Positions 33,624 to 35,512 of a DNA stretch of 43,121 bases are shown here, piece after piece. Every line of letters begins with the position of its first letter. Within the stretch, counting starts at the first letter, position 1. Below the pieces are notes generated by a model. It did no database searches. It worked only from the letters and a program-made list of their open reading frames with translations, and was not told where the DNA came from. Source of the DNA: a virus (taxonomy: Duplodnaviria > Heunggongvirae > Uroviricota > Caudoviricetes); the IMG/VR virus record IMGVR_UViG_2529292921_000020; one strand, written 5' to 3'. The translations under genes and the position numbers were made by a program.

Positions 33624-34034
33624 ATGGCAATATCTGCAGGTCGTCTGACACAGATGATAAGTGTTCTGAATCGGGTGTTAACCCGTAACGCTGCCGGAGA
33701 AATGACGGAAGAATGGGTGTCATGCGGGAAAATTCATGCGGATATCCGTGGCAGGAGCAGCCGGGAGCGGATGCAGTCCGGTGCGGAAATGGCGCAGGCG
33801 GAAATCCGCATCTGGGTGCGCGGTCAGTCCGGTCGGGAAATCACGGCAGCGTCACGACTTCATGTGCTGAGTGGTCCATGGCGTGACCGGATCCTGAACG
33901 TTGTCGGGCTGCCCGTGCCGGATGCGACCGGCGGGCGTCTGGAAATTCTCTGTCGGCTGGGCTGTCTCTTGATCAGATCTCCTGATCAAGAGACTTCATC
34001 ACCAGGTAACCCTCAACCATATCCTGAAGTCTGA
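33624..34034 (+). CDS. Head closure / head-tail joining protein, last four codons replaced by an IS50-like insertion
   Basis: Reading frame runs into the IS terminus at 33961; without the IS it would end ...EILCRLGGEK with its stop overlapping the next gene start (ATGA). Confidence 0.6.
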   Translation: MAISAGRLTQMISVLNRVLTRNAAGEMTEEWVSCGKIHADIRGRSSRERMQSGAEMAQAEIRIWVRGQSGREITAASRLHVLSGPWRDRILNVVGLPVPDATGGRLEILCRLGCLLIRSPDQETSSPGNPQPYPEV

Positions 34035-35512
34035 ACCAGCCATCCCACATGACTACCCAACCGGGGCGACCGGTGCGTTTGCTGTCATGCCATCGCCCCA
34101 GTTTCGCCAGTTTCAGACAGGCCCATTTCAGTGTCGGCATCTGTGACGGAAGCGGTTTTCCTTCCAGCTTAACCCACAGCAGTTTCCACTCTGTCGGCGT
34201 CAGTATTTTCTCACAGCTGTCATTTTGTGTTTCTTCACTGATACCGCCCTGCCGCAGGCCCAGCACCCGCACCGCGATAAACGCCTTGATAACCACCATG
34301 CGCTCGAGGTTATCCCGGGTCTGCATTCGCAGCGATTCCACACATGTACCACCACTTTTCCACGCCTTGTGGTATTCCTCTATCAGCCAGCGTCGCTCGT
34401 AATGGCTGACGATACGTCGCGCATCGGCGGCACTCGCCACTTTTTCTGACGTCAGCAGATGCCAGCAGGCGCCGTCCTCTGCCTGCTCCCGGCAACAGAC
34501 ATACGTGAGCGGGAGCGCCTGGCCGCTGTTGTCGGGATTTTTTATGCTGACTTCGCTGTAACTGATGAACATCCGGGCCTGGCGGGCTGCCCGCCCGCCT
34601 TTTTGCATCACATTCAGCGTGTGGCTTCCCGCGGTTGCCAGGACTTCCGGCAGTTCGAAGAGCTTGCCGGGTGCTTCTTCCAGCCGGCGATTCTGTGCTG
34701 CACGCACCACGAAGCGCTGCCCGTGGCTGACTTTATAATGCAGGTAATGCCAGATATCCGCTTCCCGGTCACAGACAGTGATTACCCGTTTCTGTATCTC
34801 CCCCAGCCGTTCGGCCATGCGCTCCGAAGCCTGCTGCCAGCGGTAACTTTCTTTTTCTTCATAGGGACGTTCTTTTCGCTGGTGCTTAACACCGTAGGTG
34901 TCCGTGGCACGACTCCAGCGCTGCTGTTCGATAAGACCGACTGGCAGGGCGCTGTCGGGGGCGTACATCAGGACAGAGTGAGCCAGCAGCCCGCGCGTCT
35001 TCGGGTTAGTGGTGGTATTCCCCAGGTCATCAGATGCCGTACTGTGACTGAAGTTAATGGTGGTGGTGTCTTCCAGCGCGAGGAGCAGCGGATGAGCCTC
35101 ACATGCCCTTACAGTGGCGGTAAATCCGGCTTCGGCAATGGCTTGCGGGGACACAGACGGGTTACGTATCAGGCGGTACGCACCTTCAACCTGAGCAGTG
35201 GACTGGGATGATTTCACAATAGAAAGACCTGCATGCTGAGCGAGAGAAGAGGCCAGTGACACAAGGCGTCGTGTACGACGCGGATCACCGAGACGGGCAT
35301 GTCAAAACTGCTCGTTAGCCCATGAATAACAATCAGAAAGTACCATAACAGACCCGAAGAAAATGAAATATAAGAGAAGATCAACGGGTGAGGAAAAAGT
35401 TCAAAAAATCGCTGCCGGGGAGGAAGGAAACTACCGGATGGAAAGAGTCCCCCTAAAGCAGACTGACAGACATCACAAATCCCCGGGTGGGGATTTGTGT
35501 ATAAGAGACAGG
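33961..35512 (-). mobile_element. IS50-like (IS4 family) insertion sequence, about 1.55 kb, with 9-bp target duplication
   Basis: Left terminus CTGTCTCTTGATCAGATCT matches the Tn5 inside end as I recall it; right terminus (reverse complement) CTGTCTCTTATACACAAAT is OE/ME-like; GTCGGCTGG(G) at 33952-33961 and 35512-35521. Confidence 0.8.
33973..35262 (-). CDS. IS50-like transposase, diverged from Tn5 Tnp
   Basis: 429-aa ORF sharing blocks with Tn5 transposase (EGAYRLIRNP, LEDTT, VCDREADI, RFVVRA, WLIEEYHKAWKSG, DNLERMV, DSKRTG); stop lies inside the IE-like terminus. Confidence 0.8.
   Translation of the reverse strand: MSLASSLAQHAGLSIVKSSQSTAQVEGAYRLIRNPSVSPQAIAEAGFTATVRACEAHPLLLALEDTTTINFSHSTASDDLGNTTTNPKTRGLLAHSVLMYAPDSALPVGLIEQQRWSRATDTYGVKHQRKERPYEEKESYRWQQASERMAERLGEIQKRVITVCDREADIWHYLHYKVSHGQRFVVRAAQNRRLEEAPGKLFELPEVLATAGSHTLNVMQKGGRAARQARMFISYSEVSIKNPDNSGQALPLTYVCCREQAEDGACWHLLTSEKVASAADARRIVSHYERRWLIEEYHKAWKSGGTCVESLRMQTRDNLERMVVIKAFIAVRVLGLRQGGISEETQNDSCEKILTPTEWKLLWVKLEGKPLPSQMPTLKWACLKLAKLGRWHDSKRTGRPGWVVMWDGWFRLQDMVEGYLVMKSLDQEI

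Follow-up and report, generated by a model that had tools for sequence, protein, structure and literature searches.

An ISEc13 copy with a nonsense codon in its transposase gene, flanked by a 10-bp duplication at the head-closure/HK97-gp10-like junction of a lambdoid prophage

IS50R/Tn5 encodes a transposase in which an N-terminal DNA-binding domain is followed by a DDE/YREK catalytic core and a C-terminal dimerisation region. Published criteria for the IS4 family are a D(60-110)D(100-150)E spacing and a Y(2)R(3)E(6)K motif, and those for its IS50 subgroup are a size of 1350-1550 bp, ends of the form CW------Y---CA-A--W-, the presence of YREK and direct repeats of 8-9 bp (PMC2266710). ISEc13 is an insertion sequence of E. 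coli whose label has been used for annotation in at least ten papers; no functional study was found in the literature using the name, and it is unmentioned in the supplements of the IS4-family review (PMC2266710). In EPEC O127:H6 E2348/69 it is present at about 30 places, and 874 of 5,426 complete E. coli genomes carry a copy in which 80% or more of the element is covered.

The window analyzed here is a stretch of 43,121 nucleotides of viral DNA (IMGVR_UViG_2529292921_000020). It corresponds to the lambdoid prophage situated next to ompW in E2348/69, to which it is approximately 99.9% identical. Within it, a unit of 1550 bp begins with CTGTCTCTTGATCAGATCT and ends with ATTTGTGTATAAGAGACAG. The strand given for this unit is that of its transposase gene.

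33962..35511, minus strand: ISEc13 copy, 1550 bp, matching ISEc13 copies of E2348/69 and of further E. coli with 99.9% identity and 100% coverage
33973..35346, minus strand: transposase gene, 457 codons when intact and a pseudogene here, recognized from its translation with an in-frame stop and from Tn5 homology
35302..35304, minus strand: nonsense codon 15 of that gene, TGA (GGA, Gly, elsewhere), the sole difference from copy L001

A megablast search of the 5,426 complete genomes matched the full 1550 bp, at the nucleotide identity given above, to copies whose gene is designated 'IS4-like element ISEc13 family transposase' in RefSeq. One mismatch was found relative to the reference copy in E2348/69 (L001) and none relative to the copy in L005; the length and both tips are common to the window copy and 20 other complete copies. 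Under the ISfinder isoform rule, identities of roughly at least 95% for amino acids or 90% for nucleotides place copies in one element, and the near-identity found here exceeds this. Judged by its sequence, the window element is ISEc13, the name being that given by RefSeq/PGAP annotation to near-identical copies. Because of this identity it is an already catalogued element of the IS4 family, IS50 subgroup. The initial annotation had proposed a distinct member of the IS50 group: the group was right, and a new member was ruled out by the match to copies already annotated as ISEc13. A hitherto undescribed element would agree with a transposase just 42% identical to Tn5 Tnp, which makes it clear that the element is not IS50 itself, but the full-length DNA identity to hundreds of RefSeq-annotated copies and the name already in print leave this view with almost no probability.

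The ISEc13 transposase is encoded by a single long minus-strand frame, running from the ATG at 35346 to the stop at 33973 and interrupted in the window copy at codon 15, and its product aligns over the full length with Tn5 transposase. The intact homologue WP_000244358.1 has 457 amino acids, is a single ORF in the reference copies and matched the Tn5 transposase structures over residues 6-453 with E=6e-84. Identity to Tn5 Tnp was 184 of 436 aligned positions, so the transposase had correctly been called diverged and the percent identity asked for at that time can now be supplied as 42%. The catalytic triad D93, D193 and E323 aligns with D97, D188 and E326 of Tn5, with spacings of 100 and 130, and Y316, R319, E323 and K330 align with Y319, R322, E326 and K333; both the DDE spacing and the YREK motif are those of the IS4 family. 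W295 aligns with W298, the hairpin-stacking residue of Tn5. The domain order, the catalytic residues and the hairpin-stacking residue are thus shared with IS50R/Tn5. Pfam matches above the cut-off were obtained for Tnp_DNA_bind (PF14706, 70 bits) and DDE_Tnp_1 (PF01609, 31 bits), while Dimer_Tnp_Tn5 (PF02281) scored 24.1 bits, slightly below its cut-off of 26.7; NCBIfam NF033590 was matched with 514 bits. An IS50/Tn5 remnant was excluded by the low protein identity. The element also differs from IS50 itself in that there is no near-identity to the IS50R transposase, duplications of 9 bp are not the norm, and an internal start of the Met56 type, used for the Tn5 inhibitor, is absent, with Gln52 at that position in ISEc13.

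The two ends of the element and the palindromes associated with them are as follows.

33962..33980, plus strand: IE-like terminal repeat CTGTCTCTTGATCAGATCT, identical at 19/19 positions to the Tn5 inside end and fitting the IS50-subgroup end consensus
33964..33994, no strand: perfect 13-bp palindrome formed by the IE-like end and adjacent inner sequence, RNA fold -22.5 kcal/mol, z = -3.55
35474..35499, no strand: perfect palindrome of 11 bp that shares bases with the inner part of the OE-like end, RNA fold -18.6 kcal/mol, z = -4.5
35493..35511, minus strand: OE-like terminal repeat, reading CTGTCTCTTATACACAAAT on the minus strand, 17/19 to Tn5 OE and 17/19 to the mosaic end

The left end was compared with the Tn5/IS50 inside end, and all 19 positions agreed. 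The same string is also present in a Tn5-derived primer (PMC3944678). As in IS50R, this end overlaps the stop codon of the transposase gene together with its last codons, and it contains two GATC sites. The right end was compared with published outside-end and mosaic-end sequences (PMC3347997), and the TTATACACA DnaA-box core of the IS50R outside end is retained in it. C1, T2, T9, C13, A14, A16 and T19 are found at both ends, in agreement with the subgroup consensus. In size, ends, YREK motif and direct repeats, ISEc13 fits the IS50 subgroup (PMC2266710). Both ISEc13 ends belong to perfect palindromes, which are much more stable than shuffled sequence (z -3.6 and -4.5). IS50 is not known to have such palindromes.

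These data bear out the view that an IS50-like mobile element with Tn5-type ends is present. Its extent had been given as 33961-35512, which is one base too wide at each end. A match to a well-known element with other termini had been regarded beforehand as decisive against that view; the element is indeed a catalogued one, yet the termini had been identified correctly.

The element separates two late genes of the prophage and is bordered by an exact repeat of 10 bp.

33624..34034, plus strand: fusion of the head-closure gene with IS sequence, encoding 136 aa in place of the native 116 aa, with Pfam Phage_HCP at residues 3-111
33952..33961, no strand: left copy of the 10-bp target duplication GTCGGCTGGG, an exact repeat that is single in the empty sites L002 and L003
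35512..35521, no strand: right copy of the 10-bp target duplication GTCGGCTGGG, an exact repeat abutting the right tip
35531..35977, plus strand: HK97-gp10-like tail/connector gene, intact, with Pfam HK97-gp10_like and annotated in the empty-site loci

An empty head-closure/gp10 junction, in which GTCGGCTGGG is single, was found in E2348/69 and in NCCP15648. Once the insertion sequence and one 10-mer were taken out of the window, the remaining sequence agreed with E2348/69 over 1940 bp apart from 2 mismatches. The window copy has the length and ends of ISEc13 in E2348/69 and is located at a site unoccupied in that strain. A base-identical insertion sequence is present at the same site in L005, and the identical 136-aa fused head-closure protein, together with the junction, is present in three NCBI assemblies (GCA_900448265.1, GCA_965140055.1 and GCA_002466345.1). 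Neither insertion junction was found in any of 1,244 complete genomes carrying the prophage segment. The insertion is natural. An assembly artefact was ruled out by the exact flanking repeat, the clean reconstruction of the empty site and the recurrence of the junction in several assemblies. Identity of the window with the E2348/69 reference itself was ruled out as well, the site being empty there and three further insertion-sequence differences being found.

The flanking duplication had initially been described as 9 bp long, a figure that belongs to Tn5. In the window it is an exact 10-mer. A 9-bp duplication with one boundary shifted by a base was ruled out by the tips of the 20 other complete copies, which set the tip positions for all these counts, and by the ten bases in the empty site. 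Among 13 distinct complete ISEc13 sites with a flanking repeat, the duplication was 8 bp in eleven, 9 bp in one and 10 bp in the window. As an element, ISEc13 therefore has the 8-9 bp repeats of the IS50 subgroup, with an 8-bp norm compared to the 9 bp of Tn5, and the window is a single 10-bp outlier exceeding both the range of the subgroup and the norm of the element.

No direct repeat flanks copy L001 (NC_011601.1 680532-682081), and a truncated gene for fructose PTS IIA lies directly next to it. This points to a deletion or rearrangement mediated by the insertion sequence at that locus.

Sequences flanking the duplications were collected from loci L061-L136 and from the window (33947-33961 and 35512-35526); a metagenome scan added many OE-side half-sites and only one further complete site (L104/L105). 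In 48 distinct half-sites, 181 of 240 positions matched CCCCT at -13 to -9 (P=4e-60): C occurred in 39-41 half-sites at each position from -13 to -10, and T at -9 in 22. Since these five bases outside the duplication are strongly constrained, the target of ISEc13 is CCCCT-N8-AGGGG. This strong symmetric preference is solidly established by the data. The target consensus of Tn5 is only weak by comparison. IS231A, also of the IS4 family, has the symmetric target consensus GGG(N)5CCC. It resembles ISEc13 in that a dimeric IS4-family transposase chooses a target made of short inverted repeats on either side of the duplicated bases; it differs in belonging to another subgroup, in the sequence and spacing of the half-sites and in its duplications of 10-12 bp. 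The insertion specificity of IS231A is noted in the IS4-family review (PMC2266710). The neighbouring genes were inspected for eight E. coli sites; all eight proved to be intergenic, and several of them resemble terminator hairpins.

The window half-sites, CCCCT and TCTCT, fit the consensus solely with a spacing of 10 bp, whereas the two half-sites of the single 9-bp-duplication site fit different spacings. The one 10-bp case is a hint that the spacing of the half-sites may set how long the duplication is. As a rule for ISEc13 and its enterobacterial relatives, a symmetric target with duplication length set in this way rather than fixed is tentative, and we would sooner expect it to fail than to hold. 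No paper on this target rule for ISEc13 was found; ISfinder may have it on record.

Similar half-sites of the CTCTC type were observed for relatives of 70-77% identity in Scandinavium, Pantoea and Klebsiella. In relatives of about 50% identity from marine Gammaproteobacteria (L017-L027, L047 and L051; Alishewanella, Alteromonas, Colwellia and others), the outside end is flanked by sequences such as AAAAAACCCGGCACT. Such flanks resemble the distal arm of an intrinsic terminator hairpin and suggest that these relatives likewise tend to insert into terminator loops.

The only difference from L001 is at position 1343 of the insertion sequence (window 35304), where GGA (Gly15) is changed to TGA on the transposase strand. 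This in-frame TGA (35304-35302) was missed in the initial annotation. It is restricted to the window and L005, and GGA was found in the 20 other copies compared. The Tnp_DNA_bind domain occupies residues 8-65, and the stop precedes nearly all of it; the first in-frame ATG past the stop lies downstream of the first catalytic Asp. As codon 15 is upstream of most of the DNA-binding domain, full-length transposase can no longer be made from the window copy, which is therefore probably non-autonomous. An N-truncated product might conceivably be initiated at the GTG of codon 29, where a ribosome-binding site was not evident on reading the sequence. Both ends are intact, and for this reason mobilization in trans is conceivable, though it would at best be the only mobility left to the copy. 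Compared with a typical ISEc13, the window copy is thus distinguished by the nonsense codon as well as by the length of its duplication. The absence of TGA from 20 other copies makes it most likely that the change arose after insertion.

The intact ends, and a remaining ORF otherwise the same as in functional-looking copies, would also be expected of an active autonomous element in which the TGA was a sequencing error or was read through. We consider this very improbable: the identical TGA occurs in the independent assembly L005, all 20 other examined copies have GGA, and no recoding signal is known for this family. L005 represents a genome different from that of the window, since it is devoid of the IS4 found 2.3 kb downstream in the window.

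At L069 (IMGVR_UViG_2529293044_000011, 1-1600) the IE-side head-closure junction of the window was found together with an intact GGA codon 15. The OE-side flank differs from that of the window and is 21 bp from the contig end. This pattern, a point against the reading given here, could be due to recombination between ISEc13 copies or to an assembly artefact.

Insertion at the 3' end of the head-closure gene, as initially annotated, was confirmed. In the fused protein 113 of the 116 native residues are kept, G-E-K is lost and 23 residues encoded by the insertion sequence are gained, with the Phage_HCP domain match unaffected. The loss of coupling to the downstream tail gene was equally borne out: in the empty sites the head-closure and HK97-gp10-like genes share a 4-nt ATGA stop/start overlap, and this is broken in the window. 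The HK97-gp10-like gene retains a GGAGGGG ribosome-binding site (35521-35527) and its ATG, because these lie within or beyond the right-hand duplication. The transposase gene runs antisense to late transcription, so that 1.55 kb of antisense insertion sequence is placed inside the late operon. Terminator-like sites on its plus strand numbered 5, compared to 1.8 +/- 1.3 in shuffled sequences; the best of these was the following.

34581..34604, plus strand: terminator-like hairpin with a 7-bp GC stem and T5, fold -16.9 kcal/mol, z -0.96, no more stable than shuffled sequences

A consensus scan of the insertion sequence revealed no outward promoter able to drive the downstream gene. Polarity of the insertion on the tail genes, put as probable in the initial annotation, is plausible. 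In phage lambda, Q makes RNA polymerase resistant to terminators across the late operon, and the window prophage contains Q antiterminator genes; by analogy, antitermination may blunt such polarity. Polarity strong enough to abolish tail assembly, with the insertion alone rendering the prophage defective, is a stronger proposition. The lost ATGA coupling and the excess of terminator-like hairpins on the late-operon strand point in that direction, as does the occurrence of ISEc13 in none of 50,697 deposited phage genomes. Yet the downstream gene has its own ribosome-binding site and ATG, Q antiterminators are encoded by the prophage, and the best hairpin does not exceed shuffled stability. Moreover, IS100, ISCro1 and IS4 interrupt the same prophage, and for this reason any defect of the prophage is not assignable to ISEc13 alone. 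On balance we regard such a strong effect as rather unlikely.

Three other insertion sequences are present in the window. An IS100 copy (IS21 family, IstA and IstB, 1954 bp) at 4138-6091 lies in the early region near the exonuclease, DUF1482 and dicB genes; 5 bp of target are duplicated around it, and the prophage of E2348/69 lacks it. A minus-strand ISCro1 copy of the IS66 family, with three ORFs, occupies 17547-20277 on the downstream side of the genes for the Q antiterminator and tRNAs, and another ISEc13 copy is found at nearly this position in the E2348/69 prophage. An IS4 copy on the minus strand at 37813-39234, between the genes for tail assembly protein T and the tape measure, is absent from E2348/69 and L005. 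Tandem 162-bp (54-aa) repeats were also observed in the portal gene at 32232-32825; their copy number in the window differs from that in L005-L007, and gene calls in this region split or shorten the portal ORF.

Taken together, the data make us confident that a copy of ISEc13 was inserted at the head-closure/HK97-gp10-like junction of a lambdoid prophage with a 10-bp duplication, most likely acquired the Gly15-to-stop change afterwards and is probably non-autonomous. By homology with Tn5, the insertion would have proceeded by cut-and-paste DDE transposition. Ten base pairs of target (GTCGGCTGGG) were duplicated, at a site that fits the preferred CCCCT/AGGGG half-sites with 10 instead of the usual 8 bp between them. 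The change of GGA to TGA at codon 15 would have followed, with loss of full-length transposase and the ends remaining intact. The insertion replaced G-E-K of the head-closure protein with a foreign tail of 23 residues, removed the coupling to the next gene and placed the antisense element with its terminator-like hairpins in the late operon.

For annotation, the consequence is that the region should carry the label ISEc13, with its transposase gene marked as a pseudogene, and that a 3'-end disruption should be recorded for the head-closure gene. With four different insertion sequences in the 43-kb window, this is one more lambdoid prophage eroded by such elements. The element being already known, the importance of the finding beyond correct annotation is slight, and the target preference is its sole wider point. 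Hot spots of insertion could be predicted from that preference, which also offers a tractable case for studying how Tn5-like transposases capture their targets. Should the spacing rule be true, a Tn5-like transpososome would have more latitude in the geometry of target capture than one would expect from Tn5, with its fixed stagger of 9 bp.
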